DNA of 64,000 nucleotides. Origin: Trueperaceae bacterium. GTDB lineage: Bacteria; Deinococcota; Deinococci; Deinococcales; Trueperaceae. The position numbers were made by a program, and so were the translations under genes. Location: positions 832,001-896,000 of the forward strand of contig OZ243927.1 in the NCBI GenBank assembly GCA_965213925.1, given 5' to 3'. The notes under the pieces were generated by a model. It did no database searches. It saw only the letters and a program-made list of their open reading frames with translations, and was not told the DNA's origin. Below, piece after piece: positions 13,766 to 39,801 of the stretch. Positions within the stretch are counted from its first letter, which is position 1; each line of letters starts with the position of its first letter.

Positions 13766-14283
13766 AGACGATGCGGCGTGACGGGTTCCGGGCTCAATCG
13801 TGACTAGCGGGTTGTGCATTCCCGCCTCACGCCTTCGCCCACCTTCCGCGTTCGCCACGCTTCGGGGAGATTGTTAAAGCGCAGCTCGAGCGCTTCAGGA
13901 AGTGGAGCTTGAACACGCCATAGTCATGCTCGTGCCCGAAACGTCCCCCGTCTGCGCGCACCAGCGTCCTCACCCCGGCGAGCAACAACCTCGAGGAGGG
14001 GCAAGATGACCTGCGCGTTCGCGGCGGGCGGACTGGGTCGCCACCGGGTTCGTTAGCGCGGCGTCGCCGACCTCTGACACCTCGGCTAAAGCCAGAAGAT
14101 GTGACGGGCAGCCCGTCTTTATTAACCTTAGTCAGGTCATGCGGGCGGTTTGTAAACCCCGGTGTATGCAGAATGCCCGTTAAACACTTCGGAGGAGAAA
14201 CGAATGCGTTTGTGTGGCTATGTCAAAACAGCCACGTGAACTGATGTTGAAGAAATTATGGGGAAAGGTGCAGAAGTTCTTAT

Positions 14284-15543
14284 TGGCTCATCCAGTTAAT
14301 TCGACTCAGGACTAAGCTGAGGACCTCACTTTAAGGAGGTCGGTGATGCGTCCTTGCGCCCGTGTTCGTCAGCTAACCGAGGAAGAGTATAGGAACTCAA
14401 GCGTTGGGAACGCTCACGGACGATGGGGCTAGTTCACGGCGGGCACGCACCGTGCTGCAGTCGAACCTAGGGTTGTCGGTACATGAGGTGGGCGAGAAGC
14501 TCGAGCTACACCACCAGACGGTGCGCAAGTGGGTGAACCGCTTCACGAAGCTGGGTATTCCTGGTTTAGAAGAAAGCCCGCGTCACGGGCGACCTCACAT
14601 CTACAAAAGCGAGCATGTCGGCACTGTTATTCAAACGGCTTTAACGAAACCTGATGAGCTAGGTTTACCTTTTGGCGCTTGGACCCTCGACAGGCTGGTC
14701 GTCTACCTCAGTGAAGAGAAGGGCATCATGATGGGACGCAGTCGTATGAGCGAAATCTTCAGGAACGAGGGGCTGAGGTGGCGACAACAAGGAGGGTGGT
14801 ATGGACAAAAGGTGGACCCCGAGTTCGCTGAAAAAAAGGGTGCCACCCTACAGCTCTACACCGACCCACCAGAGAACAGCGTCGTCCTCTGCATAGACGA
14901 GATGGGACCGCTCGCCTCAAGAACATATGAAGGTAAGGAGCTGACCAAAATTCGTGGACCCCCCGCCGGACGCGCGAAAGTCGCGCTTGACTATACACAT
15001 CGCCCGAAAGGTGGTTTCGTCTTCGGCGCATTAGAACCCGCCTCAGGCGCAGTATTCACTGAGATGGTCCCGCGCCGCATCGGCGGGCACTATACCGAGT
15101 TTCTGGGAAAGGTCGAGCAGTGGGTCCCGCCCGAGGTCAAGCACATCTACGCCATCATCGACAATCTCTACATGCACAGCTCTTACGACGTGCTCCTTTT
15201 TAGTCTGGCTCACCCCAGGTGGGAGTTCGTCTTCCAGCCCAAGTACGCTAGGTTACCGACAATACCCGCTTCGCAGGGCACAGGACCGGATTCGCCTAGC
15301 GGCGATCACCTAGGGGTATCTCAACCTCACCGAGCCCTGGTGGAAGACGTTACGCTCTTTAGCTCTCAAAGGCAGGCGCTTCGAGGTCTGGACCGAGATG
15401 GTTGAGCCCATTCGAAGAGCCACTGCCTACTGGAATGACCACAAGCACCCTTACGTTTGGGGCAGAAGAAGACGCCACCGCACGCCGCGTAAGTTTGGCG
15501 TCGCCGCCCTCCCTACCGTGAGCGCTTTTTAATGGACGAACCA
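14284..15543 (+). mobile_element. IS630-family element (disrupted)
   Basis: Imperfect TIRs TGGCTCATCCAGTTAA / TGGTTCGTCCATTAAA (rc); TTAT on both flanks. Confidence 0.85.
14346..15532 (+). pseudogene. IS630 transposase pseudogene
   Basis: HTH (TVRKWVNRF..PRHGRP), CIDEMGP, IIDNL, FQPKYA...YLNLTEPWWK; frameshifts near the 5' end, slippery AAAAAAAG near 14831, about 64 extra bp at 15250-15316. Confidence 0.85.
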
Positions 15544-15547
15544 TTAT

Positions 15548-15650
15548 TGGTGCATCTTTTAAGTCCGCTGCAAGGTGTTTTCTCAGTGGTTTGCGCTGGC
15601 AATACGGAAAGCCACTTCCGAAGCGTGCGCGAGATTAACCGGATGCACCA
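15548..15650. mobile_element. 103-bp MITE (copy A) with IS630-like ends
   Basis: TGGTGCATC...GATGCACCA termini; TTAT flanks; exact reverse-complement copy at 39667-39769. Confidence 0.85.
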
Positions 15651-15682
15651 TTATGCAACGAACCGGGCCGTTCGCGATCTAA
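15651..15682. repeat. 13-6-13 palindromic site, degenerate copy 1
   Basis: TTATGCAACGAAC-CGGGCC-GTTCGCGATCTAA. Confidence 0.55.
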
Positions 15683-15686
15683 AACC

Positions 15687-15718
15687 TTGTGCGTGAGATG
15701 CGCGCGTCTCTTGCAGAA
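15687..15718. repeat. 13-6-13 palindromic site, copy 2
   Basis: TTGTGCGTGAGAT-GCGCGC-GTCTCTTGCAGAA. Confidence 0.9.
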
Positions 15719-15975
15719 GACTTCAGCTATCTGGTCGCCGTAAATATGGTCCGCGCTGCTGAGCAACCGGCCTGACTCGAGCAGGTGCTCCGCCTTCAGC
15801 TACGTACTTGGCGTAGTTTTTGCTCACATAGACGATGTTTTTAAGTTCACACGGTGCAAGTAGCGTCACATCGGAGAGCATCACGGTAAGACCGCTGCGT
15901 TCAACCAGCAAATTTGTTAGAAGATAGACGGTGCTACCCTTCAATTCTCACCAATCCACGCCGTTTTCGTTAACA

Positions 15976-17157
15976 TCAGGTTTCTTCGTCTATAAAAAGT
16001 ACATCGCGCACGAGACTGCGGCTGTCCGCCTGACCGCCAAGCGAACCCGCCAGGGTGCCGAACGCGGAGACGAACAGGCTCAGCTTGATATGGTCGAGCG
16101 TTCGCACCGCCGGGTCTACGGTCGGCCACGTCTCCATAAGTTGGCGCGGAAAAATCGTAGCGACGCCCAAGTAGACGAGCGCGGCGAAGGCGGCAAAAAT
16201 AAACAGCGTCGTCAGCGTAAGACTGAGCAGGATAGCCGCCCCGGTGACGACGCTCGACTCGGCTAAACGTCGGCCCCTGCGCCGGGGTGCGCCGAAAGCG
16301 AAGGCGCGGTAGAGCGCAAACGTTCCCACCGCTACGGACACACCCGCAAACAAGATGAGTTGGTACAGCTCGACGGTGCTTGCTACGTCCCACATCTCCG
16401 GGCTGAAAAACACGACGATGATAACCGACAGCGCTGCGGTAATCAGGGTAGGCAGGCGCGTCGCCAAACGCAGCGGGTTCGCCCTGGCTACAGCGTGAGC
16501 GATACTACGCCAGTCGCTCCGAAGCGTGCGCAGCACGAAACCCCAGCGGTTGCCCTGGCTCGTGCGCTCGTGCGCTTCACGCGGCAGGGCTAGGCGCACG
16601 TGGTTCCGCTGCTCGGGCGTCAGCGTCGCCATCGCGCCCAAATCGTCTACGCTTTCAAAATCGTACATCGCGTTGTGCGCCTCGTCCGAGTGCGGCAAGT
16701 TGAGAAGATGACCGAGCGTATGCAGCAGGAGGTGATTTAGGCGCTGCACGGTGAGCGCCTCGTCCGCTTCTTCCCCCCAAAAAGCGGGCTCGAGCCGCTT
16801 CGTCGAGATGACGCCGATGTTGGTCAGCTGACTCGGCAGGGCGAGGGTGTAAGAAAGTGTGGTGGCGGCGAGGTCGACTTCAGTGACGATGAGGAGAAAG
16901 TCGGCGTTACGCTCGAGTTTTTCGCTCACGCCGAGGCGCAGAAAGTCGAGCGGCGCGTAGGCTCCGGCGGTCGGGGTGAGGTGCGGTCCGTCGAAACGGA
17001 GTAGGTCAACACGCAGCCCTAGTTCGGTGCCAAGCGCCTTGTCAAACGCCGTCACCGCCTCGTTCGCCAGCCTCTCGAAACGCTCCGAGTGCTTGCCCTC
17101 CACGTCTATCGTCATCACACCGACGACGTACTCACGGCTCGAGGGGGTCTTAGACAT
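15976..17157 (-). CDS. Zincin (archaemetzincin-like) domain fused to a 4-TM membrane domain
   Basis: HTLGHLLNLPH..NAMY (HExxH-like with E replaced by T); C-terminal TM helices. Confidence 0.7.
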   Translation of the reverse strand: MSKTPSSREYVVGVMTIDVEGKHSERFERLANEAVTAFDKALGTELGLRVDLLRFDGPHLTPTAGAYAPLDFLRLGVSEKLERNADFLLIVTEVDLAATTLSYTLALPSQLTNIGVISTKRLEPAFWGEEADEALTVQRLNHLLLHTLGHLLNLPHSDEAHNAMYDFESVDDLGAMATLTPEQRNHVRLALPREAHERTSQGNRWGFVLRTLRSDWRSIAHAVARANPLRLATRLPTLITAALSVIIVVFFSPEMWDVASTVELYQLILFAGVSVAVGTFALYRAFAFGAPRRRGRRLAESSVVTGAAILLSLTLTTLFIFAAFAALVYLGVATIFPRQLMETWPTVDPAVRTLDHIKLSLFVSAFGTLAGSLGGQADSRSLVRDVLFIDEET

Positions 17158-17579
17158 GGTTGCTCACTAAGCTGAGTATACGTGACGCGCCTGTGCCAAT
17201 TCGGGACAGTTCCCTCAATCAGAAAATTTCTTACGCTAAGGCAAGCTGCCCCGTTTACAGCATTCGGTTCGTTTTGATCAGTTGTGTCGGGAACGTTCTA
17301 CTTGTGAACTAGACACTCAAACCGTCCGAAGAGCAAAGACAGGGCAGCTACGCTTAGTGCAGCAAAGCTTATTCAGGACTCAACTTATTCGCTTACCGTT
17401 AATTTTTTCCAAGCAGGGAACTACCCCTATTTGCGGTGTCCCTACGCGGAGAGATGTTCACCGAGAACTTGATACGGTGATGGAGCTACAACACGCTTGG
17501 CTGAATGGCGAGCAAGGGCACCGGATTAGCGGTTCAAGGACCACTAGCGCCCTTTTGCTTACTCAAGCTGCATAAGTCC

Positions 17580-17611
17580 TTCTGCGAGAGACGCGCGCGT
17601 CTCTCGCATAC
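17580..17611. repeat. 13-6-13 palindromic site, copy 3
   Basis: TTCTGCGAGAGAC-GCGCGC-GTCTCTCGCATAC; perfect 26-bp palindrome at 17583-17608. Confidence 0.92.
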
Positions 17612-17656
17612 CGCTTATGCAACCCTCGGTCCGTAGTCCTACCTTGTAGATTTCAA

Positions 17657-18187
17657 TCACTCAGCCTGCTGTCGGCTTGGGAACCGCTGCTCGGCGACCT
17701 TACGCAAAAGACGGTGCAGCGTCTCCCGCTCGGTCCCGCTCAAACACCCGTAGGTATCACTATCCGCCGCGTCGATAATGCTCCTACTCTCTTTGAGAAC
17801 GCGCTCACCCCGAGCGGTCAGTACCAGCTCGTAATAGCGTCGGTCATGGGTGCTCTTCACGCGCTGCACGTAACCGAGCGCTTCTAAGTCGTCTACAAGG
17901 CGCACCACGTGGGTGCGGTCCAAGCCTAGGTTCTGACTGATGGCGACCTGTGAGCGATGCTCGCTCTCGGCGATGAGCTTCATCACGCCAAGCTGACGCG
18001 CGTCGATGTGAAGCGGCTCCAACATCTCCTCCAGGACGAGCTGCGCCATCTGCGCGACGTAGCTCAGTACGTACCCCGTCTCCGACGCCAGCGTCTCGGA
18101 GAGGTCGTGAGAGTTGAAGTAGAGGGGCGGCGCGGGCACGCGATTCCGTTTAGGGACTGCTCGAGCATCTTTTGAAGCCTCAGACAT
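17657..18187 (-). CDS. MarR family regulator
   Basis: LGLDRTHVVRLVDDLEALGYVQR...DRR..LTARG. Confidence 0.9.
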   Translation of the reverse strand: MSEASKDARAVPKRNRVPAPPLYFNSHDLSETLASETGYVLSYVAQMAQLVLEEMLEPLHIDARQLGVMKLIAESEHRSQVAISQNLGLDRTHVVRLVDDLEALGYVQRVKSTHDRRYYELVLTARGERVLKESRSIIDAADSDTYGCLSGTERETLHRLLRKVAEQRFPSRQQAE

Positions 18188-18890
18188 GGGCTAGTCTACA
18201 CGTCGTGCGCCGAACCACTCTCATGTGGGTAGCCCTGCGCAGGTACGCGAGCAAGCGGTGCTGCATTTCAAAGGTCTCCAAAAGCACGTCTCGAAAACCC
18301 TTGTCCGTTACCTCGTCGTCGCGGAAATGTCGGATGGTCAGGTACTGGTTGAGCCGCAGCAGGTGAATCGCGGGGTGGTCAGTGCTGTAGCCGCGCGGCG
18401 CGTTTTTAAGGCTGTCCTCATCGTCTAGAACGTCAGAAAACACCTTGCGAAAGGCGTCGTTGTCAACGAGCTGCTCGAGTTCCTCCGGCTTGTCATGGAT
18501 GCACTCGCGAATGGTACTTAGCACCTCGCGCTTAGGCGAATGAAGCCCGCCGCCAGCGACGCTCCCGCCGGGCGTGATGTTGAGGTAGTACCCCGGTTCG
18601 ACCTCCCCTAGAGGCGCAATGACCGCCATGATGTACGTTTTGAGCGGCGCGGCGTTGTCAGGGTGAAAGCGCGTATCGCGGTAGATGCGGGGCAAGCTCA
18701 CGACGCTGCCGCCTCCTAAATCCTTGCGCAGGCGTTCGTCGAAGGGGGCGATGTCGACTGCGACACCCTTGATACTCTGCTCGAAGGCAACTTTCATCGC
18801 CTTATAGTCGTCTTTACGCTCGTTGAACCAGTCCTTGGTGTTGTTTTGCTCGAGCTGGCGGAAGAACTCGAGCAAGGTCGGGTCGATCAT
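18180..18890 (-). CDS. DUF2461 / TIGR02453 family protein
   Basis: FFRQLEQNNTKDWF, RIYRDTRF, LKNAPRGY..DHP. Confidence 0.85.
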   Translation of the reverse strand: MIDPTLLEFFRQLEQNNTKDWFNERKDDYKAMKVAFEQSIKGVAVDIAPFDERLRKDLGGGSVVSLPRIYRDTRFHPDNAAPLKTYIMAVIAPLGEVEPGYYLNITPGGSVAGGGLHSPKREVLSTIRECIHDKPEELEQLVDNDAFRKVFSDVLDDEDSLKNAPRGYSTDHPAIHLLRLNQYLTIRHFRDDEVTDKGFRDVLLETFEMQHRLLAYLRRATHMRVVRRTTCRLAHV

Positions 18891-18900
18891 GCTGCCTCTA

Positions 18901-20184
18901 TCATATTGCGCCTCGGTCGGTATCTCCCCCGCGTAAGTTCAGCATCTTGTCCATAATGACCTCCCCGCGACCAGGTTCACTCCAAGGGCAGACCTCGATA
19001 CAGATCGCGCAGCTCTCGTTGGCGACGAAGTAAGGTGCGCAGCGGTCGAAGTTGATAAACCACCGCTCCTCACCTCGGACCATCTGTTTGGTTTCGAAGA
19101 TGGCTTGCGGCGGGCAGTTGGTCGTGCAAATCTGGCAGGACATGCAGAAATCGTCCACGCCTATGTCGATAGGTACATCGGGTTCCAGGGGCATGTCCGT
19201 AAGTACCGTCGCTAGCCGCACGTTAGAGCCGTAGTCCTTGGTGATCATCGAGTTGTGCTTGCCGAGCTGCCCTAAGCCCGCTGCAATCGCGATGGGCACG
19301 TGTTGCACTTCAGACGTACCGGGCGCGATGTTCGTACACGCTATCGCCGGATAACCCCGACTGCGGATGTATTCGGCAAGACGGATCGCTGCCAAGCCGA
19401 CCTTACGGTAAATGCGAAAGACCTCGGCATGCGTGCGTATCTGGGTCGGGTAGCGCATCTCCTCGCGGTCCATCGGCACAGCGATAGAAATGGCGTACTT
19501 AAACGAAGGCTCGAAACCGTCGAAGAACCACTCATCTTGAGGCTCGGTGATGCCGACTAGAGCCGCGCCGTGCTCCTTGGCAACCGCTTTGACTCGTCCG
19601 CTCATCGCTTTGGGGCTCGTCACCGTCTCCCGCCGCCTCGCGACCGCCCCGACGCGCCGCCGGTCATCCCAGAACAGACGTACAATGACACGGGTAATTC
19701 GCCAAGATGTGAGCGTGAGGAGTACCTGGTGCAAGCCGCCCCAAGCGTAGCTAAAATCGAAGAAGAGGTAGTAGGGCCGACGCTTTTCTGTTTCGTCCAG
19801 ACCGCTTATGACCATACCCGAGACGGGCGGTTTGCGGTAGGCAAAAGGATAGCTGGGCTCCGGGTAGGACGGAAGGGCGACGTCGGGGGACTTGCGGGGC
19901 GGCAAGTCAGTTTTGGGCGACAGGTCCGCGCTGATGTTCGGCAGTGTGTCAAACTGCTGCGTCTCCGCGTCTGGCGGCTTTGGGAGGTCTTCGATCCAGA
20001 TGGTCTCTCCCCTCGAGATTTTCCGCCTGAACTGCCACTTTTGCCACTCACCGACCGTCCAATAGGCGAGTGTTGCCCCGGCGGCAAGCCCGACGCTTCT
20101 CAGCATCCTCCCCGCTATACGGACGTGCTGAGCGAGCTGTTCGGTACAGGTTCGGGGACGTTCAATCTTGACTGCCATCCACAT
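18901..20184 (-). CDS. Reductive dehalogenase/QueG-like 2x[4Fe-4S] protein (paralog 2)
   Basis: AGLGQLGKH, YGSNVRLATVLTDMP, FCMSCQICTTNCP and CAICIEVCPW. Confidence 0.8.
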   Translation of the reverse strand: MWMAVKIERPRTCTEQLAQHVRIAGRMLRSVGLAAGATLAYWTVGEWQKWQFRRKISRGETIWIEDLPKPPDAETQQFDTLPNISADLSPKTDLPPRKSPDVALPSYPEPSYPFAYRKPPVSGMVISGLDETEKRRPYYLFFDFSYAWGGLHQVLLTLTSWRITRVIVRLFWDDRRRVGAVARRRETVTSPKAMSGRVKAVAKEHGAALVGITEPQDEWFFDGFEPSFKYAISIAVPMDREEMRYPTQIRTHAEVFRIYRKVGLAAIRLAEYIRSRGYPAIACTNIAPGTSEVQHVPIAIAAGLGQLGKHNSMITKDYGSNVRLATVLTDMPLEPDVPIDIGVDDFCMSCQICTTNCPPQAIFETKQMVRGEERWFINFDRCAPYFVANESCAICIEVCPWSEPGRGEVIMDKMLNLRGGDTDRGAI

Positions 20185-20256
20185 CTCCTCTAGGTTGGGG
20201 CTTTTTACAAAAAGTCAATACATCTTCGTTACGGTAATGTGACAGGAAAGTCACCT

Positions 20257-21525
20257 TCACGTTTCGGCACTCCCGCGGCGGCTGAGCATCTTGTCCATGA
20301 TGACGTTGCCGCGCCCCGGTTCACTCCACGGGCAGACCTCGATGCAGATGCCGCACCCCTGGTTGGCTGAGAAATAGGGGACGCACTGATCGAAATTGAT
20401 GAACCACCGCTCTTCACCCCGCACCATCTGCTTGGTCTCGAAAATGGCTTGCGGCGGGCAGTTTGTCGTGCAGACCTGGCAGGACATGCAGAAGTCGTCC
20501 ACACCGATGTCCACGAGCTGGTCAATTTCCAAAGGCAGATCAGTCAAGACCGTCGCGAGCCGCACGTTCGCGCCGTAATCCTTTGTGATGATCGAGCCGT
20601 GTTTGCCAAGCTGCCCCAACCCGGCTTCAACCGCAAGGGGAATGTGTAGCACCTCCGTCGTGCCAGGAGAGATGTTCGTGCTAGCCCTGGCGGGATAGCC
20701 TAGGCTGCGGATGTGTTCGGCGAGGCGGATGGCGACGCGCCCCACGTCCTCGTAAATGCGAAAAACCTCCACCATCGCACGCTCGCTCGGCGTGTAGCGC
20801 ATCTCCTCGCGGTCCATTGGCACGGCGACGGAGATGGCATATTTGAATGAGGGCTCGAAGCCCTCGAAGTACCACTCGTCGCGCGGCTCGGTAATACCGA
20901 CTAAAACCGCGCCGCACTCCTTCGCGACCTCTTTGATTCGTGCACTCATCGCCGCTGTATCAGTAACCGGCTGCTGGTCTTTCCAGACCGCCCCGTCACG
21001 CCGCGCGTTATCCCGGAAGATGCGCACGACCGATCGCACGACGCTGAGTGGGATCAGAGTAAAAAACACTTGCGTCAAGCCGCCCCAGGCGTAGCTAAAG
21101 TCGAAGAAGAGGGGGCGAGGTCGGCGCTTCTTTGCCTCGTCTAAGCCGCTGATGACCATGCCCGACACGGGCGGCTGCCGGTAGGCGAAGGGATAGCGGG
21201 GTTCGGGGTAGGACGGCAGGGCGACGTCGGAGGACTTGCGGGGCGACAGGTCGGTTCTCGGTGATAAATCAGCCTGAATATTCGGTAATTCGCCGAACCG
21301 CTGCGTCTCGGCGGAGGGGGGCTTGGGCAGGTCCTCGATCCAGACGGTTTCGCCGCGGGCGCTCGAGCGCGTCAGGTGCCGCTCCTGCCAACGTTTGAGC
21401 GTTCGGCTGGCGAGCGTCACGCCTAGGGCTAAGCTCGTGTTCACTAGCTTGTGCCGCGCGGCGCGAATGCGCTGGGAGAGGTGCTCGGCGCGGGTTTTCG
21501 GATGGTCATTTTTGGGAAGAGTCAT
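20257..21525 (-). CDS. Reductive dehalogenase/QueG-like 2x[4Fe-4S] protein (paralog 1)
   Basis: AGLGQLGKHG, RLATVLTDLP, FCMSCQVCTTNCP and CGICIEVCPW. Confidence 0.8.
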   Translation of the reverse strand: MTLPKNDHPKTRAEHLSQRIRAARHKLVNTSLALGVTLASRTLKRWQERHLTRSSARGETVWIEDLPKPPSAETQRFGELPNIQADLSPRTDLSPRKSSDVALPSYPEPRYPFAYRQPPVSGMVISGLDEAKKRRPRPLFFDFSYAWGGLTQVFFTLIPLSVVRSVVRIFRDNARRDGAVWKDQQPVTDTAAMSARIKEVAKECGAVLVGITEPRDEWYFEGFEPSFKYAISVAVPMDREEMRYTPSERAMVEVFRIYEDVGRVAIRLAEHIRSLGYPARASTNISPGTTEVLHIPLAVEAGLGQLGKHGSIITKDYGANVRLATVLTDLPLEIDQLVDIGVDDFCMSCQVCTTNCPPQAIFETKQMVRGEERWFINFDQCVPYFSANQGCGICIEVCPWSEPGRGNVIMDKMLSRRGSAET

Positions 21526-21540
21526 GGTAGTTTGCGACGG

Positions 21541-22950: not shown

Positions 22951-23294
22951 GGAAACTCTCTTTCATCTAAATTTGCTTCTGAGATACGAGTAATTGCGAA
23001 GCGCCACGGTTGTCTCCTCGAGTTGACAAACAGCAATTCCATTACTCGTTGCTACACCACTGATTGCGTCCATTTCTATTCGCATCCGCTCACACTTTTG
23101 CTTGCTACAGCAAGCAAAAGTGGAAATGCTAAAACAAGTGAAAGGGCGAAAAGGCTTCTTCATCTAAACTAAGTATATTAGGTGATTATTTCATCTATAG
23201 GTATCTTCACTTACATTGTGATAGTGCTTTTGTGAATCCTCCATTTTTGCCTATCGCACAAAGCTCTGGACGTAGCGTCCTTAAACACCTTTGT

Positions 23295-23395
23295 TGGTTC
23301 ATCCAGCAAGTTCATCGTAATTTTTTAGCTCAAGAGTCCTGTTCACAACGTAAAAAGTGATTAGCAAACCTACACGAAATTTAGTGGACGATCCA
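23295..23395. mobile_element. 101-bp MITE with IS630-like ends
   Basis: Ends TGGTTCATCCAGCAAG / TGGATCGTCCACTAAA (rc) resemble the IS at 14284; TTGT on both flanks. Confidence 0.7.
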
Positions 23396-23427
23396 TTGTG
23401 CGGCAGACGCGCGCGTTCGCCGCGTAA
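23396..23427. repeat. 13-6-13 palindromic site, copy 4
   Basis: TTGTGCGGCAGAC-GCGCGC-GTTCGCCGCGTAA. Confidence 0.85.
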
Positions 23428-24587: not shown

Positions 24588-24598
24588 GCGGTAAAAAA

Positions 24599-25438: not shown

Positions 25439-25470
25439 TTCTGCGTGAGATGCGCGCGTTCGTCGCACAA
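25439..25470. repeat. 13-6-13 palindromic site, copy 5
   Basis: TTCTGCGTGAGAT-GCGCGC-GTTCGTCGCACAA. Confidence 0.9.
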
Positions 25471-28919: not shown

Positions 28920-28951
28920 TTCTGCAAGAGACGCGCGCGTCTCTCGCACAA
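28920..28951. repeat. 13-6-13 palindromic site, copy 7
   Basis: TTCTGCAAGAGAC-GCGCGC-GTCTCTCGCACAA. Confidence 0.92.
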
Positions 28952-29067: not shown

Positions 29068-29086
29068 GGAGATAGTGGAGCGTTCG

Positions 29087-31183: not shown

Positions 31184-31476
31184 AGTTGATCCCTCCCAGA
31201 GATCATATGGCGGCCTGACCCTCCGGCCCTTGCTCCGGTTCGCTTCTATACCGAACGTCTACTTGATGATGAACCTCTGTAAACTTAAACCGGCTACGTC
31301 ATCGCTGTGTCATTGTGAGAGAATCCTCGAGCAACTTCATACAGCCCTTGTTTTAGAAACCTGCTGTCAGTTACCAGCCCTGGGACAGACAGGTGCTCGA
31401 GGAACCCCTTCTCGTCCTTGTTTGCGCCAGACGTTCACGTCTGGCGCTACTGAACCGAGCGTCGTTGTGCTAAAGC

Positions 31477-33123
31477 TCAGTCTGCCACCTCAAAGACCTG
31501 CGAGGCTTCCGAGACTTGTCCATAAGGGTCGGTAGAGCGCACCGTCACGGTGTGGACACCAGGCTCGAGGTTGTCGGGCAGGTCAGCCACCCAGATGTGC
31601 GACGAGGGATTCGGCGTCGAAACCTCTTCGTCTGTACCTAGGTAGCGCAAATAGCGGTCCTCCATAAAGGGGTCGGTGCGCAGGGTGTGCTCCATCGGTT
31701 GGTAGTCGCCATCGTCGAGTCGGTACGCCACCTGATGCTGCTCTCCGCCGTCGAAGACGTTGACCACAAGTTGCGGCGCTTGCCACGCGGCGACCTCGAA
31801 CTGGTCAGGGCTGAGCTGGTTTCGGCTCGCGCCCTCTTGCTCCAGCATAATGCGCATCTGGTAGTCTTCGGGCTCGCCCGCCGCCTTGAAGCGCGTGCTG
31901 TAGTCGTCCCCTTCAAACGAGAGGATGTAGTAGCCGTTAGGGTTGCCGTCTTCCATCGTAGTCGCCGGGAGGCCATGCTCGTTCTTGGGTCCGCTCCAGC
32001 CGTTGCCTCTGACTTCGGCCAGAATCTGATGGTGTAGCGGCTCGGGGCCGTTCCAGCCGTGCTCTTGGTCCAAGTACATCTGCCAACTGTTGCTGGTGTC
32101 GTGACCCGAGAGGGTGTAGAGGTGTTCGCGTCCCTCTAAGACGGCGAGTAGGTCGGAAAAATTGACGGTAATAAGGCGCTCGGTCTGATCTACCGCGTCA
32201 GTGGTGAGAGGGATATGGGTGGCGATAACGACGAGCTTGTCGTTAGGGACGAAGCGCAAGTCGTTCTCGAGCCATGTGATCTGCTCCTGGGAGATGAAGC
32301 CCCGGTAGCCCCCCTCGACCTCTCCTAAGTAGTCCACGTTGTCGAGCGCCACGAAGTGCACCTGTCCGTAATCGAACGAATAGTAGGTCGGGCCAAAGAC
32401 GCGCTTGAAAGTATCCGTGGCGTGCTCGTCGGTGAGCGCATCGAAGTTGACGTCGTGGTTGCCCGGTAAGTTCCACCAGGGGATGCCAATCTGCGAGACT
32501 AAGGCGTTATGCCGCTCATAGAGGGCGAGGTTGTCGTTCACCACGTCGCCGACGGTGAGGCCGAAGAGGGCGCTCGAGCCGATCAGTTCGGCGATGACGT
32601 CGTCGCGCAGATAGCTCAACTCTTCGTCGGTGGTCGTCTGCGTGTCGGCGAAGGCGACAGCGTCGAACTGGTTTTGCACCTCAGCAGGAAGAAGCGGAAA
32701 ATCGACCGGCTCTGGCAGAGAACCCGTCGGTTCTATACCGCTAAACTCCAGCTCCGGCGAGCCTTCAGGGTAGTGCAGATAGTAGAACTGGGGAAGTTGG
32801 GCATCGTTGACGGGGACTTCGTAGTTGTTGGGCTTGCTGACGAAAAGGATCATATCGTCTCGAGCAGGCAATTCGTAGCGCCCTTCACCGTCCGTTTGGA
32901 CGACCTCTAAGCCGTTCGAGACTGCGACACCCTCGACGCCAGGCTCACCGTCATCACGCTCGCCGTTCTGGTTCTGATCTTCAAAGACGACGCCCCGAGC
33001 AATCGCTTCACTCGCGCCGCCCGTTGTGTCACCGCCTGTAGCACCGCCAGTCGATTGAGCCTGAACGGTCGCAAGGGTTCCTAAGCTCAACATGCCTACG
33101 GTGATCCATCTCGATAAACTCAT
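31477..33123 (-). CDS. Secreted calcineurin-like metallophosphoesterase (MetallophosN/C)
   Basis: GVVFEDQNQNG..GVAVSNG, ADTQ, VGDVV, PGNHD, HIP, SGH. Confidence 0.88.
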   Translation of the reverse strand: MSLSRWITVGMLSLGTLATVQAQSTGGATGGDTTGGASEAIARGVVFEDQNQNGERDDGEPGVEGVAVSNGLEVVQTDGEGRYELPARDDMILFVSKPNNYEVPVNDAQLPQFYYLHYPEGSPELEFSGIEPTGSLPEPVDFPLLPAEVQNQFDAVAFADTQTTTDEELSYLRDDVIAELIGSSALFGLTVGDVVNDNLALYERHNALVSQIGIPWWNLPGNHDVNFDALTDEHATDTFKRVFGPTYYSFDYGQVHFVALDNVDYLGEVEGGYRGFISQEQITWLENDLRFVPNDKLVVIATHIPLTTDAVDQTERLITVNFSDLLAVLEGREHLYTLSGHDTSNSWQMYLDQEHGWNGPEPLHHQILAEVRGNGWSGPKNEHGLPATTMEDGNPNGYYILSFEGDDYSTRFKAAGEPEDYQMRIMLEQEGASRNQLSPDQFEVAAWQAPQLVVNVFDGGEQHQVAYRLDDGDYQPMEHTLRTDPFMEDRYLRYLGTDEEVSTPNPSSHIWVADLPDNLEPGVHTVTVRSTDPYGQVSEASQVFEVAD

Positions 33124-33143
33124 TTTAGTCTCCTTGGGCGAGG

Positions 33144-34211
33144 TCAGTTCTGAGCGCTCACTTGCACCGCTTGAAGCTCGCTCAGCCGCACGGTGTTCTG
33201 CATGATGAGGTCACCGTCCACCGCTCGAATCTCCATTGTGACCTCGGGGTCAGGCGCGTCCCAGTCGATCGTTAAGAGCCCGTAGTTGTCGAAGTAGTAG
33301 ACGCCGCCCAAGCGGTTTGCGTCGGGCGGGATGATCTCCCAGTTCTCGGTCAGCCCGCTCGAGTTGACCTCCCAGAGCGGATAGGGCGCGTTCTCGGTGC
33401 GCTTGGAGAACTGCGCCCAGTGCGTGTCGCCGGTGATGAAGAGCGTGCCGTTCGCTCCCGTTTCGCGGATGAGGTCCACCATGCGTTCGCGTTCATCGGG
33501 GAAGTTTGCCCAGGTCTCCCAACCCGTCCCGTCTTGCAAAAAGGGGATGCTCGTGCCGATGATGCGCAGCTCGGCAGGTTCGCGGAGCGTTTCTTCCAAC
33601 CACGTCCACTGCGCTTCACTGAGCATCCTTGCGTCGGGTCCGGTCGTCGCCGTGTAGGGTCCCGCGCCGACCTCTTGCCGCTGCTCGTACTCGGTGTCGC
33701 TTACCTCATTGATAGGCGAACGTGCCCAGCGCGTGTCTAAGAGGATGACCTGGACGCGCTGTCCCGCTGGTCCATACGTGTACGACGTGTAGATACCACC
33801 GTCACGGCTGCGGCGTTCGCTGTTTTCGGGCTCATTGAAGAAATCTAGGAAAATCTCTTTGGACTGCTCTTTCATAGGGTACTCGCGCCCTGCGTCGTTC
33901 TCGCCGTAGTCGTGGTCGTCCCAGGTGGCGATGACTCGGGTCTCACTCAGAAGTTGCTGGTAGCCAGGATTCTCCGAAAGCAGCGCGTACGCCTGGCGGA
34001 GTTCGGCGGGGTCTTCGGTGTCGCCGTAGACGTTGTCACCTAAAAAGACGAACACGTCGGGGTTGCTGTCAATTACCGCGTCCCAGATCGCTTGGGGGCT
34101 GGTCTGCTCGGCGCAGGAGCCGAAGGCGATGCGTGTTAGAGGGGTTTCTTGAGTGAATACTGAACCCAAGAGCAGACTTGCGACGAGCACGCTGCCGATC
34201 AACCGCTTCAC
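33144..34211 (-). CDS. phoD: PhoD-family phosphatase (short type)
   Basis: [35 protein letters not shown] start overlaps the upstream stop. Confidence 0.85.
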
Positions 34212-35032
34212 TGTTGCCCCCGCGAGCGCAAGAAAGCTTCTAAGCCTGCCAAATCGTCTGTGTTGATGTGATCCACGCCGACCTCGTTCAAGACGCGCCA
34301 TACCGCCTCACGTGCCGGGCCGGGCTCGTCCGGCGAAGCCCAAAACCGCACCGTCTGACCGTTTTCATGCGCGGTGCTGACGATGCGCTCCAGCTCCCGG
34401 CGTTCAGAAGCGGGCATCTCACCCTCACCCGTCCAAGTAAAGACGTTCGTCCAGTTGTCGCTGATGAGCGGAATGAAGCTGGCGGGCGTGTCCGAGCCCA
34501 AGTCCTCCATGCGTCCGTCATAGCCCGCGTAGCGTATCTCTTGCGCTTGCATCAGCTCGCGTGGGCGGTTGCCGGAGATAATGGCGGTGACAGGACCTTG
34601 TTGAGCACCGTTCTCACCATAAGCTGTGAGGATATCTTCGTAAGACGCCAGTACCTCGTGAAGCGCTCTGTAGGTCGCCTCCTCGTCCGTCTTAATATCG
34701 ATAAGGAGCGTCAGCGACTCATCGCTACCTTCGTAGACCGAGCCGCTATTCTGCTCGATACGCGCCCGCAGCGGGTCCAGGTAGAGCGATTCTAAAGTCC
34801 TTCCCAAGCGCAACTCGTGTGCGTCGTGCCCGACAAACAGTTCGCCGAACACGAGAAAGATATCGGCCTCCACGCTAGTGAAGCCGTAGCTGAGCGCGTC
34901 ATAGAGCGGGCGCTCATGCTCGTAGTCGTTGTGGGCGTGCGCTTGCTCTAAAGGCACAACAGACTGGGCAACAGCGAGGGGAACGGTGAAGAGTAGAAGA
35001 GCTGCTGCGAGGTGAAAAGCTTGGCGCATCAT
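34208..35032 (-). CDS. Secreted PI-PLC/glycerophosphodiester phosphodiesterase-like protein
   Basis: HAHNDY, SVEADI, LLIDIK, VRFWA, INTDDL. Confidence 0.85.
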
Positions 35033-35149
35033 GCAACCTCCCGTGTGGTGCTTGTTGAGGGTTGCCCAGGGCATCTTTCTTTATAGACGCTCGAGGTCAG
35101 CGCAAGGTCAGCGGTTAAATAAGGGATTTAGCCCATACAGAAGTAGCGC

Positions 35150-35181
35150 TTCTGCGTGAGACGCGCGCGTCTGTTGCAGAA
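35150..35181. repeat. 13-6-13 palindromic site, copy 8
   Basis: TTCTGCGTGAGAC-GCGCGC-GTCTGTTGCAGAA. Confidence 0.92.
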
Positions 35182-35223
35182 GCCCTGTTAAGTCTCGTCT
35201 ATAGATAGACGCATATAATACAG

Positions 35224-35914
35224 GAGGGTGATCGGGTATTCAGTGAGTTTTAAGGAAGAAAGGGTACTGGTGGGATGTGATAGACTACCAGTACCTGCTA
35301 GAAAGCATACCCGTTGAATTAGATGAAGTCGTTAGCAACATCAAGGTGTCCGAGACCCGAGCCGGTCCCGGTCAACCGCGCAGCTACAGCAATAGCTCGC
35401 TGATTCGCTTTCATGTTTACCGCTTTGCCAAAGGCGGGTGGTCGGTTAGGCAGATGCAGCGTGAACTGAGGCGGCAGCCCGCGCTGCTGTCACTTAGGAC
35501 GCGAACTTCTCAAGCGCTTACCTAAAGCGAGAGGCGTTGCTTTAGCTGACGCTGCTTATGACGCAGCGGCCAACTTCCGCACCGCTCTGGCACGAGGTTA
35601 CCATCTACTCACCTCGACCAACCCACGCCGGGGTGAGACACAAGCAGCACCCAGGCAGCTCAACCAGCAAACTAGGCGACGCCTTGAGATGAAAGCTCTA
35701 CTCAAGAAACGACTCGGCATCGGGCGCGTCTTCAGCGTCTGTAAAGAGATTTTAGGCCTTGCAAAAGTGCGCGTCCAGGGCTTCGCCGCTGTTAAGCGTC
35801 ACGCGCTCGCAGCAGTGACTACCTTTAGTGTCTTAGCTCAAGCGCTTACACAAAGAGGTCGCTCCATGCTCGAGATTGCCCAGGTCGCCGCCTGATGAAT
35901 AACCGATCACCCTC
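35224..35914 (+). mobile_element. Internally deleted IS (IS4/IS5-like DDE remnant)
   Basis: 19-bp TIRs GAGGGTGATCGGGTATTCA / TGAATAACCGATCACCCTC (18/19); transposase fragments GQPRSYS, ALADAAYD, RLGIGRVFS. Confidence 0.8.
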
Positions 35915-36173
35915 ATCAAAACAAATAGCGTTGCCCTCGCACGGCTCAGCGGCCCGCGCTACACCAAAGTTTCAACCCTCTTCACTCACAACCTGACAAA
36001 ACTGTGAAGCCTCTCCGTTAAGTTGACAGCAGGTTACAGCGACTTCTCCTAACATCACGCCACCCTCTGCGCGCTCCGACATCCGTTTCGCGTGGCTCAC
36101 GTTGTCTCGTTCTTCTACTTGTGTCTCGAGCAGGCCGCTGCCAACCCAAATTCAGCACGGCGGAGGTCAACAT

Positions 36174-37901
36174 ATGCGGCGAGTAGGGGTTCTTATCTGT
36201 TTAGCGCTCTTCTGGGGCGCAGCGGCCCAGGACACGGACGGTGACGAAACGGGCGGCAACGTGACAGGCGGCGCAATGAACTCGGGCGGCGATACCTTTA
36301 CGGGCATCGTCTTTGAAGATACCAACGAGAACGGCGCGCGCGACGAGGGCGAGGCGGGCGTCTCGGGCGTGTCGGTCTCGAATGGCGTCCAGGTCATGCA
36401 GACCGGCGAAGACGGTGCGTACGAGTTGCCCATGCGTGAACGTATGATCGTTACCGTGAGCAAGCCGCAGGGCTACATGGTTCCAGTAGACGACAATAAG
36501 GTGCCACAGTTTTTCTATATCCATCAGCCTGAAGGCTCACCCGAAGTCATCCAGGAGTACCGGGGCTTGGAGCCGACCGGCCCGCTGCCTGAATCCGTGG
36601 ACTTCCCCCTCCTCCAAGCCGACGAGCCTGACGCCTTCCGCTTCGTCGTGCTCGGCGACACACAGGTCACGACCCAGGAAGAGCTGACCTGGATGCGCGA
36701 CACGGCCATCGCGGAACTCGGCAGCAGCGAAGCCCTTTTCGGCGTCGCGGTGGGCGACCTCGTCAACGACCCCTTAGGCCTCTACCCGCGCTACCAAGAG
36801 GTGATGGGCGGGTTGCCGTTTCCGGTCTTCTACCTACCGGGCAACCACGACCTCAACTTCGACTCGCCCGACGACCAATATCACTTGGAAACCTACAAGC
36901 GTTACTTCGGCGCGCCGTACTACTCCTTCGACTACGGACAGATGCACTTCGTGGTGTTCGACAACGTGCGCTACAACGTGGACGAGGGCTTCGAGGGAAC
37001 CTACAACGGGCGCATCAGCGACGAGCAGCTCGAGTGGTTCCGCAACGACCTTCAGTTTGTGGACCCCGATAAGCTCATCGTCTTAGGGATGCACATCGCG
37101 CTCACGAACTACGTGGACCGCGACGCCGAAAAGCACCAGGAGACGAACCGCCAAGAGGTCTACCGCATCTTGGAAGAGGGCGGCTTCGAGAACGTGATTT
37201 CGCTGGCTGGGCACTCCCACACCGTCGAGCGCTTCCGCGAGGGCGAGACGTACGACCCCGGCATGGTGACGAACGACGACGGCGAAGAGGTCGAGTCGTT
37301 CGGCTGGGGTACGGTGCCCTTCCCTCAGTTCGTGGCGGGTGCGGTCTGCGGCTCGTGGTGGAGCGGCACCGAAGACGAGTTCGGCATCCCGACGAGCTAC
37401 CAGCGCTGCGGCGCGCCTAAAGGCTACATGGTCTTCGACGTGGAGGGCAACCAGTTCAGCGAACATTGGAAGGTCTCGGGCTCGGACGACGCCATGCACA
37501 TCAGCTTCGACTTCCCGCAAACCGGCTTCAGCGCAGATGGCGGGACACTCAGCGACATGGGCATCATCACGACGGGCGAGCTAGATAACGTCACCGTCGT
37601 CGCCAACGTCTACGCGGGCAGCCGCGACACGCAAGTCGAGATGAGCATCGGCGGCGAGACAATGGAGATGACCTGGAACCAGGACCAGCGCGACCCGCTC
37701 GCCATCAGTTTCCAGCCGCAGGACATGGACTGGCGCTTGACGACGGCGGGCAAGTCATATCACATCTACACGGCCACGCTGCCCGACAACCTAGAGCCGG
37801 GCGTCCACACCATCACGGTGCGCGCGACCGACCCCTACGGTCAGGAGTTTGTGGGCACGAAGGTCTTCGATGTGTGGGCGGACTCGAGCGCCAGCCGCTA
37901 G
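36174..37901 (+). CDS. Secreted calcineurin-like metallophosphoesterase (paralog of 31477..33123)
   Basis: GIVFEDTNENG, GDTQ, VGDLV, PGNHD, AGHSH, GAVCGSWWSG. Confidence 0.88.
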   Translation: MRRVGVLICLALFWGAAAQDTDGDETGGNVTGGAMNSGGDTFTGIVFEDTNENGARDEGEAGVSGVSVSNGVQVMQTGEDGAYELPMRERMIVTVSKPQGYMVPVDDNKVPQFFYIHQPEGSPEVIQEYRGLEPTGPLPESVDFPLLQADEPDAFRFVVLGDTQVTTQEELTWMRDTAIAELGSSEALFGVAVGDLVNDPLGLYPRYQEVMGGLPFPVFYLPGNHDLNFDSPDDQYHLETYKRYFGAPYYSFDYGQMHFVVFDNVRYNVDEGFEGTYNGRISDEQLEWFRNDLQFVDPDKLIVLGMHIALTNYVDRDAEKHQETNRQEVYRILEEGGFENVISLAGHSHTVERFREGETYDPGMVTNDDGEEVESFGWGTVPFPQFVAGAVCGSWWSGTEDEFGIPTSYQRCGAPKGYMVFDVEGNQFSEHWKVSGSDDAMHISFDFPQTGFSADGGTLSDMGIITTGELDNVTVVANVYAGSRDTQVEMSIGGETMEMTWNQDQRDPLAISFQPQDMDWRLTTAGKSYHIYTATLPDNLEPGVHTITVRATDPYGQEFVGTKVFDVWADSSASR

Positions 37902-37914
37902 GTTTTCATGTGTC

Positions 37915-38009
37915 GTAAGGGCGGATTTCAAACCAGTCCCTGCGCTGCACAATCCCTCACCCATATAGCCCGCACCGCTCGGTAGGGGCGCTTCATGAAT
38001 CGCCCCTAC
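37915..38009. repeat. Pair of GTAG-class REP palindromes
   Basis: GTAGGGGCG-CTTCATGAAT-CGCCCCTAC (37982-38009) and degenerate GTAAGGGCGGATTTCAAACCAGTCCCTGC (37915-37943). Confidence 0.7.
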
Positions 38010-38049
38010 GCCGCACATCTCTTCTATATTTATCTCGAGGTGACTCCCT

Positions 38050-39063
38050 ATGACGTACACGAAATGCTTGCCAATTCTATGTCTTTTCTTCTTCGCTTTC
38101 ACCACCCACGCCCACGACGAACACGGACCTACTCGCGTAGTCGCGCCCGCCTCGGCGGACTACCTACTCTCGCTGCCCTCGAGTTGGTACGACTCGCGCC
38201 GCTTCGACCAGCCCTTGCCCGACGAGGGCGATAAGCTCTACATCGCCGAGACCGAGGTGATGTTCGAGGCGTGGCGGCGCGGCGAGGTGCTGGGGCCGGT
38301 ATTACAGGTGCTGAGTTCGCCTGCTCCTGAAGGGGAGGAAGATGAGGTACTGCGTCAAGGTCTCGGCCTGCCGATAGCGGAGAAGCAAATTAAGCCTCAC
38401 ACCGTGAACGGCTACCCGGCACTGAGCGCTCGCGGCTTCCCCTACCGCGGCGCACCCGAAACCGGCCTCACCGTACTTCTCGCTGGAGGCACGCTCTACC
38501 ACTTCCTCTACGCTGCCGACCGTCCCGCGCACCTTCACGAGGTCGAGGAAATTGTGGATAGCTTTGCGCTCCAAGCTGACGCCGCCGAGCGTGACGAGGT
38601 GCAGATTGCCGCCTCGAGCGACCTATCCGGCCTCATCGGCAAGCCTGCCCCGGACTTCGAAGCAGCAGTCATGGGTACAGACCTCCAAGAGCGCGTGACC
38701 CTGAGCGACCTGCGCGGCAAGACCGTCGTGCTGACCTTCTGGGCGACGATGTGCTTTAGCTGCCAATTAGAACTGCCTATGCTCGCACGCGCCGCCGCCG
38801 AGCGTGGCGACGTGGAGGTCTACGCCATCAACTGGCGCGAGGCCCCCGGCGTCATCCGGCAGTTCACGGACCAGCTCGAGACCTCGCCCACCGTCCTCTT
38901 AGACCGCGCCGGGCTCATTACCGACCGCTACGGCGTGAGCGTCCTACCCGCCACGCTGATTATCGACTCGCAGGGCATTGTGCGGGCTGCGCCGCAGTTC
39001 AAGATGGAGACGACCTTGGAAGAGGTGAAGGGGTGGCTCGAGGTTGCCACGGCGTCCAACTGA
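38050..39063 (+). CDS. Secreted protein with C-terminal TlpA/ResA redoxin domain
   Basis: GKPAPDF, LSDLRGK..FWATMCFSC..ELP, PATLIID. Confidence 0.85.
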   Translation: MTYTKCLPILCLFFFAFTTHAHDEHGPTRVVAPASADYLLSLPSSWYDSRRFDQPLPDEGDKLYIAETEVMFEAWRRGEVLGPVLQVLSSPAPEGEEDEVLRQGLGLPIAEKQIKPHTVNGYPALSARGFPYRGAPETGLTVLLAGGTLYHFLYAADRPAHLHEVEEIVDSFALQADAAERDEVQIAASSDLSGLIGKPAPDFEAAVMGTDLQERVTLSDLRGKTVVLTFWATMCFSCQLELPMLARAAAERGDVEVYAINWREAPGVIRQFTDQLETSPTVLLDRAGLITDRYGVSVLPATLIIDSQGIVRAAPQFKMETTLEEVKGWLEVATASN

Positions 39064-39099
39064 GCTTCAAGTATCGCTCGTAGCGTTCTGTGGCAGACA

Positions 39100-39605
39100 T
39101 TAGATCGGCCCCGGTCCGACCGCGCAGTCGTAGGTTAAAAGCACGCCGCCCTGTTGCACGCCCGTCTCGGCGCCCGCGAAGAGCAGTTTGTTTCCCCAGT
39201 AGGACTTTTGGAACGCCGCACGACCGTACACAGGGTGTCGAGTGAGCGCCGCGCGGTCCGCAGGCGCGCTGCTCTGTTCGTCCCGCCACCACATATAGTC
39301 GAAGTAGACGAGATGGTCATGCGGCGGGCTGCCGTAGAGCCTGGTCAGCTGGGCGAGGACGGCTTCTTCGCGCTGGCCGGGCTCACCTGAACTTTGGGAC
39401 GACGCGAAGAATCCCTTGATAGCGCCGACCCGCGCGCCGTCTGGGCTAACGTCGTGCAGCTCGCCCAACGGACCCCTATAGCTCACAGCGAAGCCGGGCA
39501 ACCCCTCGTCGCGCCAGAAGGGTCTCTCGAAAACGACGACGGCTTTCGCCGAGCCGCCCATCCAGGTCGGCGTCGCGCGCTGAGCGCTCTGCAGCGCGTC
39601 AGGGA
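39100..39605 (-). pseudogene. Flavin amine oxidase C-terminal fragment
   Basis: TPTWMGGSAK..FERPFWR, LLFAGAET; no N-terminal FAD-binding region. Confidence 0.7.
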
Positions 39606-39666
39606 GATAGAGTTAGAGTTGCCCTTTACGGTCTCGAGTATCTCCGTCCCCTAACGCGCCTCTTCT

Positions 39667-39769
39667 TGGTGCATCCGGTTAATCTCGCGCACGCTTCGGA
39701 AGTGGCTTTCCGTATTGCCAGCGCAAACCACTGAGAAAACACCTTGCAGCGGACTTAAAAGATGCACCA
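39667..39769. mobile_element. 103-bp MITE (copy B)
   Basis: Exact reverse complement of 15548-15650; TTCT on both flanks. Confidence 0.85.
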
Positions 39770-39801
39770 TTCTGCAGGAGACGCGCGCGTTCGCCGCAGA
39801 G
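39770..39801. repeat. 13-6-13 palindromic site, copy 9
   Basis: TTCTGCAGGAGAC-GCGCGC-GTTCGCCGCAGAG. Confidence 0.9.

Follow-up and report, generated by a model that had tools for sequence, protein, structure and literature searches.

Duplication of the dinucleotide TA is the textbook mark of the IS630/Tc1/mariner superfamily of transposable elements. Within it, the insertion sequence (IS) ISY100 inserts almost only at TA, which it duplicates (34/39), and the available part of its description reports cut-and-paste transposition with cleavage two bases inside the 5' ends (PMC2170065). Another group of IS, the "dif site hunters" ISAba32 and ISAjo2 of the IS1202 family, lies beside recombination sites; their targeting mechanism is left open in the available parts of bioRxiv 10.1101/2022.12.17.520857 and PMC10132070. 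Here we analyze a stretch of 64,000 nucleotides (hereafter the window, C1:832001-896000) of the 4.75-Mb genome of a Trueperaceae bacterium (G000), in which an IS630 lineage and its MITEs (miniature inverted-repeat transposable elements) lie at the edge of 32-bp palindromic sites.

The elements abut the edge of these sites, in either orientation and at either arm, with a 4-bp target duplication. They stack at a single site, the sites exchange DNA at their spacer after the insertion, and the clade of these elements is nested within a wider IS630 subgroup. Our preferred reading, which we hold at a probability of roughly 52%, is that the transposase reads the whole dyad, probably occupied by its recombinase, rather than the tetramer that is duplicated.

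Elements at the edges of the 32-bp sites

The original prediction proposed that the IS and its MITEs insert precisely at the edge of a palindrome, with a TTNT duplication. The junctions are indeed exact: TTAT-[14284-15543]-TTAT-[15548-15650]-TTAT, TTGT-[23295-23395]-TTGT, and TTCT-[39667-39769]-TTCT. All four elements (4/4) start with TGG and end with CCA when checked in the sequence, and the insertion points are all intergenic (3/3). Two statements stand only in part. The duplicated tetramer is the first four bases of the site, but TTNT is only the consensus of the arm, and other tetramers are perfectly duplicated too. Likewise, the first stack adjoins a palindrome whose TTAT is copied, but this palindrome is a degenerate accessory copy and the canonical site starts 36 bp further on, at 15687. 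The features concerned are the following.

14280..14283, + strand: TTAT, distal copy of the target duplication of the IS (from the sequence)
14284..15543, + strand: IS630-family IS, 1260 bp, non-autonomous, with imperfect inverted terminal repeats of ~15 bp, TGG...CCA (from the profile and the genome copies)
14346..15532, + strand: transposase pseudogene with a helix-turn-helix (HTH) region and a DD35E domain (codons D 14896, D 15160, and E 15332)
15250..15313, no strand: 64-bp micro-insert disrupting the catalytic domain
15544..15547, + strand: TTAT doing double duty, as proximal duplication of the IS and distal duplication of the MITE (stacked insertions)
15548..15650, + strand: 103-bp MITE, the nearest element to the site, with three copies at 100% identity in the genome
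15651..15682, no strand: degenerate accessory 13-6-13 site with a CGGGCC spacer, first four bases TTAT duplicated
15687..15718, no strand: canonical 32-bp site, both edges element-free
17580..17611, no strand: canonical site, empty
23291..23294, + strand: TTGT, distal duplication of the MITE
23295..23395, + strand: 101-bp MITE of a divergent subfamily, empty allele known
23396..23427, no strand: canonical site, first four bases TTGT duplicated
25439..25470, no strand: canonical site, empty
28920..28951, no strand: canonical site, empty
35150..35181, no strand: canonical site, empty
39663..39666, + strand: TTCT, distal duplication of the MITE
39667..39769, - strand: 103-bp MITE, identical to 15548-15650 in reverse complement but flanked by a different duplication, TTCT
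39770..39801, no strand: canonical site, first four bases TTCT duplicated

Given its site-proximal place, the MITE at 15548-15650 is likely a later arrival than the IS. In another sample, the same MITE and arm precede a canonical GCGCGC spacer.

We scanned the whole genome with an end profile made from transposon ends only, without site information. This blind scan gave 17 paired-end matches, versus three in the reversed main contig. Eleven of the 17 exactly abut one of 90 sites, which bears out the targeting of the edge. Of the others, one abuts the accessory site, another sits in a stack on a MITE that abuts a site, one is a single base off, and three are siteless, two of which are 117-119 bp long and probably due to chance. 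Overall, 14/17 are linked to a site. A hand census of 25 elements (20 MITEs, four two-ended IS, and one truncated IS), some of which were located through their site flanks and not blindly, places 21/25 at a site or stacked on one. Hence, when the genomic copies are tabulated with their flanks, the majority is adjacent to the palindrome. The stacking of elements at one site, also part of the prediction, is found again in the blind scan. The motif TT.TGC[AG] occurs 4610 times in the genome, 108 of them at site edges; since it lies mostly away from sites, the motif alone is insufficient for targeting.

Related genomes show the same placement. In two sister species, five of seven MITE-pattern matches abut a full site (two of the five are orthologues of one insertion in G000), one is cut by a contig end, and one is siteless. 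A second class of sites, with a GCGCTC spacer, is found in the genus g43, where 5/7 MITEs abut such a site, all five on the variable arm, and 5/7 have a perfect 4-bp repeat. Six further junctions between an element end and a site edge come from contigs of three other runs. A loose MITE pattern matched 27/128 genomes of the family, where single matches are at control level, and only G000, G001, G002, G140, and G143 were followed up; a stricter pattern applied to 363 genomes of the order added only G025. In G002, a locus orthologous to the module left of the MITE at 23295 (L349, G002:C2:1910500-1911300) has a different MITE at the same site edge, which is a case of repeated independent targeting of one edge. 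A site of G001 (L016/L031, G001:C2:15234-15265) has both edges filled, the left one by the end of an IS and the right one by a MITE.

Among the 24 two-ended elements of G000, 13 have a perfect 4-bp repeat, five a repeat matching at 3/4 positions, and six fewer. The perfect duplications that depart from TTNT (CTGC, CTAT, CTTT, TCAT, TACG, and TAAC) show that all four positions are copied and that TA is unnecessary. Empty sites in related DNA point the same way. For the second window MITE, a public contig passes from 23291 to 23398 over a single intervening base, a net loss of 105 (101+4), and keeps one tetramer with one base different. In an element-free paralogue on contig C6 (97% identity), the flank of this MITE is directly joined to the site arm. 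The public contig lacks the element plus four bases and no conflicting duplication was seen, so that the atypical 4-bp duplication, in place of TA, is upheld by both the TA-less tetramers and the empty alleles. Among the joints listed, neither the stack at 14280-15654 nor the MITE at 39667 has an exact empty allele; their orthologues diverge before the junction.

Some flanks do not match. Two full-length IS copies with unmatched flanks are siteless on both sides, which rearrangement between copies would fit; the same is proposed for IS1202 misfits in the available part of bioRxiv 10.1101/2022.12.17.520857. One IS copy shows TTAT, whereas TTGT stands at this place in a paralogous module that is identical over 1.1 kb. 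More generally, the neighbors of the IS left end are off target at C1:2898711, 3230207, and 3237293 (TTAT for TTGT/TTCT) and in L270-L272 of G142 (A for T/C). These mismatches could be one or two bases carried over from the donor, or gene conversion. We also considered TTAT as a part of the IS left end and rejected it, since other copies have ACAA or TTCT there.

The sites, their modules, and the recombinase gene

The 32-bp dyad comprises a 13-bp arm, the spacer GCGCGC, and a second 13-bp arm. At a site profile score of at least 16, we found 88 copies on the main contig and none in its reversed control. They are grouped in a few islands, and a scan of the genome with the arms only added few sites above background. 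Modules shared between genomes start or stop at the spacer, as does the window module at 15700-17610, which has 98% identity in a sister species and its left joint at the spacer. Inverted arms, a 6-bp spacer, and joints at that spacer are what one finds in dif/pdif-like crossover sites, and the 32-bp sites are likely the crossover points of a Xer-like recombinase.

The sites remain in use after an insertion. One MITE-bearing module of ~1335 bp, which includes the MITE, the arm, and the spacer, is found at 94-95% identity in G000, G001, and G002. Beyond the site, the sequences are unrelated in all three pairwise comparisons, i.e., the module has three different partners, with the joint at the 6-bp spacer. 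Hence, recombination at the site took place later than the insertion, and the module carried the MITE along, in agreement with the earlier claim that the insertion leaves the site intact.

The candidate enzyme is encoded in the window.

51694..51725, no strand: site 90 bp ahead of the recombinase match
51792..52682, + strand: gene for an XerC/D-like tyrosine recombinase, the candidate to act on the sites

The protein scores under the cut-offs of the XerC and XerD profiles. A site lies 90 bp from the recombinase match in 6/7 homologous loci, and the recombinase and the site pattern co-occur in the same 4/41 genomes. The gene is present in 7/128 genomes of the family, and was not found at E<=1e-60 in G054, which has sites. 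In the window copy, codon 4 is a stop and the reading frame is open only from a TTG at 51816; a second copy (C1:3232342-3233205) lacks this stop. A conserved hairpin directly precedes the recombinase start in the homologues (51726-51803 in the window). The module, bounded by the sites at 51694 and 53386, also has a VapC-like toxin gene (NCBIfam matches under the cut-off) with a short upstream open reading frame (ORF), at 52731-53364.

Besides the pair in the window, two more pairs of accessory and canonical sites were identified in the genome, at a 35-bp pitch. The degenerate accessory sites, 35-36 bp from the canonical ones (window 15651-15718, C1:2674026, and C1:3424395), have a GGCCCG/CGGGCC spacer in 2/3 cases, and a lone site with a GGCCCG spacer occurs at C2:106868, on a 128-kb contig. 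They are possibly regulatory or resolution sites.

Three other features of the window were recorded. A separate dispersed repeat of ~100 bp with inverted ends (23030-23132) has ~10 copies in G000 and ~30 in G002, and is unlinked to the sites. Two tandem paralogous ORFs, 1344 bp apart and with 74-83% identity, lie at 18901-21525. A perfect 39-bp direct repeat with a spacing of 78 bp is found at 56883-56999.

The transposase, its MITEs, and its relatives

The IS630 model of NCBIfam (NF033545, cut-off 100) gives 137 bits to the window fragment and 179 bits to the full-length P0002, and Pfam HTH matches are found in the N-terminal region. The transposase is not of the IS1202 type, since its best profile is IS630 and the ISNCY model gives 19 for a cut-off of 250. 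Residues D276 and E312 are invariant in the alignment, and the window codons are spaced likewise if the 64-bp insert is left out of the count. [quoted passage not shown] In a Pfam DDE_3 scan of the genome, the window IS was not among the matches listed. The four best Foldseek hits of the P0002 model are all Mos1 (E 1.5e-5 to 1e-4), with TM-scores of only ~0.2 and a pLDDT of 67. The element is an IS630 by ancestry and a variant in its target rule.

All five IS copies of G000 are damaged, by frameshifts, truncation, or micro-inserts of 64-66 bp, and one of the four two-ended full-length copies keeps a perfect duplication. Their near-identity (at least 99.4% over the shared parts) and the three identical MITEs indicate recent movement. 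The window pseudogene has a frameshift near 14390-14435, seven A instead of six in a slippery A6G run near 14831, and the micro-insert. Among relatives, L037, L081, and L297 have two ORFs and the A6G run, and L045 a single ORF. Two of these 4-bp-clade elements, L037 and L297 (the latter on the Deinococcus grandis plasmid AP021851.1), look intact, and ORFs such as P0021 and P0064 provide intact homologues in the branch of the window element. The micro-inserts have related ends and occupy two fixed spots of the transposase gene (window 15250-15313; C1 2897648, 3228876, 3235962, and 3490220); public contigs hold insert-free alleles of the first spot. The micro-insert is a parasite of the IS.

The MITEs are 100-104 bp long, occur in both orientations, and form an old family, with nearest-neighbor identities of 0.61-1.00. 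Their similarity with the IS is confined to the terminal 13-19 bases. They are non-coding, share the termini and the duplication length of the IS, and have identical copies at different sites, as expected of MITEs of an IS630 lineage. Across the 4-bp clade described below, MITE lengths are 91 bp (L289/L293, G025), 100-104 bp (G000), and 113 bp (L287/L294, G144). These steps of ~11 bp suggest that the ends must be in helical phase to pair.

For the analysis of relatives, we took the best 80 of 259 loci from genomes and the best 80 of 585 from metagenomes, which cover at least seven phyla by record title. Both ends and their flanks were available for 112/160 loci, some of them redundant, and the ends are again TGG...CCA. 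We found 46 perfect 5-bp repeats (38 CTWAG and eight rarer variants) and no perfect 4-bp repeat; the 66 unmatched loci, of which 28 are CTAAG/CTTAG swaps, may result from rearrangement or chimeric assembly, and their high share weakens the 5-bp count. CTAAG or CTTAG flanks 82/112 left ends and 79/112 right ends. A 3-bp duplication with elements ending in G...C was rejected for this subgroup, since eight matched rare pentamers (such as CTTAC/CTTAC and GTTAG/GTTAG) were found where ~0.5 would be expected from a hand calculation that assumes independent flanks. As mainly these eight pentamers indicate, 5 bp are duplicated in the wider subgroup, at CTWAG, and the window element is thus not alone in departing from TA.

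We built a tree of 45 rows, i.e., P0002 and 44 of 132 non-redundant loci (10 labelled as 4-bp type, eight chosen, and 26 random), rooted at midpoint only. The 4-bp-type loci and P0002 fall on one side of a branch with support 96/91, beside a 5-bp Deinococcus element; in a FastTree analysis of 129 rows, the 4-bp branch has a support of 0.90. The hunting of sites with a 4-bp duplication, nested among the 5-bp duplicators of CTWAG, appears from these trees to be a derived trait. Two loci of one distant branch (L133 and L129) have TA beside their ends, and duplicators of 2, 4, and 5 bp may coexist in one tree.

The terminal repeat of the Tn3 family is 38 bp long, with the consensus GGGG...CTAAG. 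Members of the 4-bp clade outside this bacterial family adjoin the inner end of Tn3-type repeats. This placement is clear in L037, L123, L125, a D. grandis copy, and two MITEs of G025, partial in L036 and L081, and absent at one MITE of G144. Outside the clade, only four elements have a strict Tn3-like flank (8/255 flanks overall). Element-free repeats of this type are found near PF01526 matches, at a distance of ~90 bp in G175, ~180 bp in G145, and 2.5 kb, within one contig, in G025. An exact pair of empty and filled repeats in G025 reveals a 4-bp duplication on the repeat side. In L040, L123, L135, L037, and L289, two Tn3-type inverted repeats directly enclose only the IS630 or the MITE, either by insertion into a Tn3-derived mini element or because the interior of a Tn3 was deleted between two copies of the IS.

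How the site is found, and comparison with known systems

Under our preferred reading, the transposase would find the site by one-sided recognition of a protein-occupied end, and its landing pad would be the edge of the bound DNA, combined with an inherited local taste for TT-N-K. The chemistry would be the cut-and-paste of ISY100 and Mos1 with a 4-nt stagger. Arm and spacer would remain whole, with the element just inside the module, such that genes are avoided and the element rides with the module; in this sense the sites may be the "safe haven" first suggested for them. A new arrival would enter between the arm and the earlier element, pushing older ones outward. Other mobile systems have ends that bind proteins, and the nested 4-bp clade would land on the bound side of such ends, be they Tn3 repeats or the 32-bp sites. 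Bound-end recognition is favored over a direct reading of DNA since G000 has no insertions at isolated arms but has some at weak ones, and since the two targets of the clade share little sequence, yet both are binding sites of other mobile systems. Occupied arms scoring at least 10.3 are in full sites in 13/13 cases, for a background of 126 isolated non-ORF arms and 134 site arms, and the associated p of ~2e-4 is optimistic because the sites are clustered in islands and elements are inherited with modules, making the counts non-independent. The predicted complex of the transposase fragment with the recombinase (score 0.01) gives no answer and counts neither for nor against binding.

Like this caveat, several observations weigh against the preferred reading. 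Four of the 25 elements in the hand census are away from any site, 11/24 two-ended elements lack a perfect repeat, including 3/4 full-length IS copies, and G000 holds no intact transposase. Two of three identical, hence recent, copies in G142 are at an arm without a recognizable partner arm; the 10 bases TTATGCAGTT are common to both arms, as a direct reading of the sequence would predict. Each of the three copies duplicates only 3/4 bases, with an A beside the left end. Furthermore, a search at E<=1e-25 found no homologue of the recombinase in G142 (99% complete) or in G140 (91%), yet both have variant sites and insertions at site edges. The misfits among relatives are L033 (siteless), L031, L266, L268, the G001 copy L002 (ATAAG/GTAAG), and the above-mentioned MITE of G144, which has TAG/TAG flanks and no repeat nearby.

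In one alternative, the geometry is the same but the transposase reads the DNA itself, either arm and spacer or both arms, and needs no bound recombinase. We regard it as the most serious competitor, at about one chance in three. Specificity would have drifted from CTWAG to TTAGCG (Tn3 ends) and then to TTNTGCG (arms). The flank counts of the wider subgroup reveal an enzyme that is already sequence-specific, the recent copies of G142 are at TTATGCRGT arms in a genome without detected recombinase, and the element ends have an arm-like 13-mer at positions 16-28 that the DNA-binding domain of the transposase could read in both places. Yet, such an enzyme should not ignore isolated good arms, where G000 has no insertion, nor accept weak arms and the tetramers TACG, TAAC, and CTGC where the rest of the site is good. 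It also fits poorly with insertions at one edge of the dyad instead of its center, and with two targets that are unrelated beyond a few bases and are both protein-binding ends.

In a historical scenario that we find rather unlikely, the clade gave up Tn3 repeats in favor of the sites used by a novel recombinase cassette system, and half-site mimics at positions 16-28 of the MITEs let the recombinase deliver them to module edges. If true, delivery by the recombinase would be a natural example of a re-targetable Tc1/mariner-type transposase guided by a partner protein. The corresponding mechanism, where the recombinase binds arm-like half-sites in the element ends, synapses with the genomic site, and delivers the transpososome, seems to us unlikely, at less than one chance in ten. 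It is motivated by 34 MITE ends that fit the site-arm profile best at exactly position 16, a test that overstates the match because the ends are related. At positions 20-28, the arm score is -4.4, above those of the controls (226 ends from other taxa scored -13.2 and the MITE interior -14.9), and one MITE end includes a perfect site arm. However, scores are low for many ends, for the right end of the IS, and for both ends of the G001 IS, and insertions occur in genomes without detected recombinase. The arm-like positions 16-28 are a lead, either for shared DNA recognition or for tethering by the recombinase.

It is very improbable that there is no targeting, with insertions at loose TTNT and selection and spread retaining only the copies at module edges. 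The intergenic positions of the window insertions, the grouping of sites in islands, and at least one insertion inherited across three species would suit this explanation. Yet, 578 TT.TGC[AG] motifs are both remote from sites and outside ORFs of at least 100 codons, and 11/17 blind junctions are on the same site base. New junctions from other samples fall on that base as well, and identical MITE copies occupy different sites with different tetramers. Finally, an ordinary TA duplication with ends misplaced by one or two bases can be practically dismissed: TTAT contains TA, an A at position 3 is enriched at occupied edges (6/17 vs 21/161, p=0.026), and L133 and L129 have TA flanks, but TTGT, TTCT, CTGC, and CTTT contain no TA, one MITE has TTAT at one place and AGAA at another, and the empty alleles lacking the element plus four bases rule it out, unless those contigs are artefacts.

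This is an independent origin of recombination-site hunting, a trait whose mechanism stays open for IS1202. The elements are parasites exploiting a cassette system, placed inside module edges and reshuffled with the modules. Duplicators of 5 bp, of 4 bp, and perhaps of TA share one tree at 50-65% protein identity, so that swaps between close natural homologues could map what sets the stagger and the choice of target. The dedicated recombinase, the two classes of sites, and the alternative target at Tn3 ends would allow a clean comparison with and without the partner, and a mariner-type enzyme with a 32-bp landing site could serve targeted insertion. In the literature search, which did not cover ISfinder, where members may be catalogued, we found no account of a non-TA IS630 subgroup with these targets. 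In the literature found, an IS630 subfamily that abandoned the TA rule, with one clade hunting the ends of other mobile systems, is undescribed.

The comparison with described systems relies on the available parts of the respective sources. Our elements resemble ISY100 and Mos1 in their HTH and DD35E domains, an IS630 model score over the cut-off, inverted repeats, MITEs, and perhaps their fold, which in the moderate-quality model of the homologue P0002 comes nearest to Mos1. Unlike ISY100, the subgroup duplicates 5 bp (CTWAG) or 4 bp and does not need TA. In the modules bounded by arm-spacer-arm sites and in the joints at the 6-bp spacer, the system is similar to the dif modules of Acinetobacter (pdif, XerC/XerD); it differs from them by its 32-bp symmetric sites with a palindromic GCGCGC spacer, the ~90 chromosomal copies, and a recombinase below the XerC/XerD cut-offs. 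As IS4321/IS5075, which target the 38-bp terminal repeats of Tn21-type elements, and the IS1111-attC elements, this clade hunts the ends or recombination sites of other mobile systems, and its sister members also land on Tn3-family repeats, as IS4321/IS5075 do (PMC11187229). Those elements encode RNA-guided DEDD recombinases (IS1111/IS110), whereas ours have a DDE transposase and a target duplication, and land either at the repeat's inner end or at the arm's outer edge.

The closest parallel in behavior is with ISAba32 and ISAjo2. They too are DDE IS with a fixed position beside tyrosine-recombinase sites that bound modules, where the site stays intact, tandem stacking occurs, varied spacers are tolerated, and the duplication is sometimes missing. 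Yet, their transposases are IS481/IS3-like, with 441-457 aa and TGT ends, whereas ours is an IS630 of ~375 aa with TGG ends. They duplicate 5-6 bp outside the site, instead of 4 bp of the arm itself, and insert on the XerC side in one orientation, instead of at either arm of a symmetric site and in both orientations. Their target is the dif/pdif site (11-6-11) of the host XerCD, in contrast to 13-6-13 sites with a dedicated candidate recombinase gene, and a family of MITEs takes part only in the system described here. Our elements thus work like the IS1202/ISAba32 hunters but are unrelated to them: the two are convergent.

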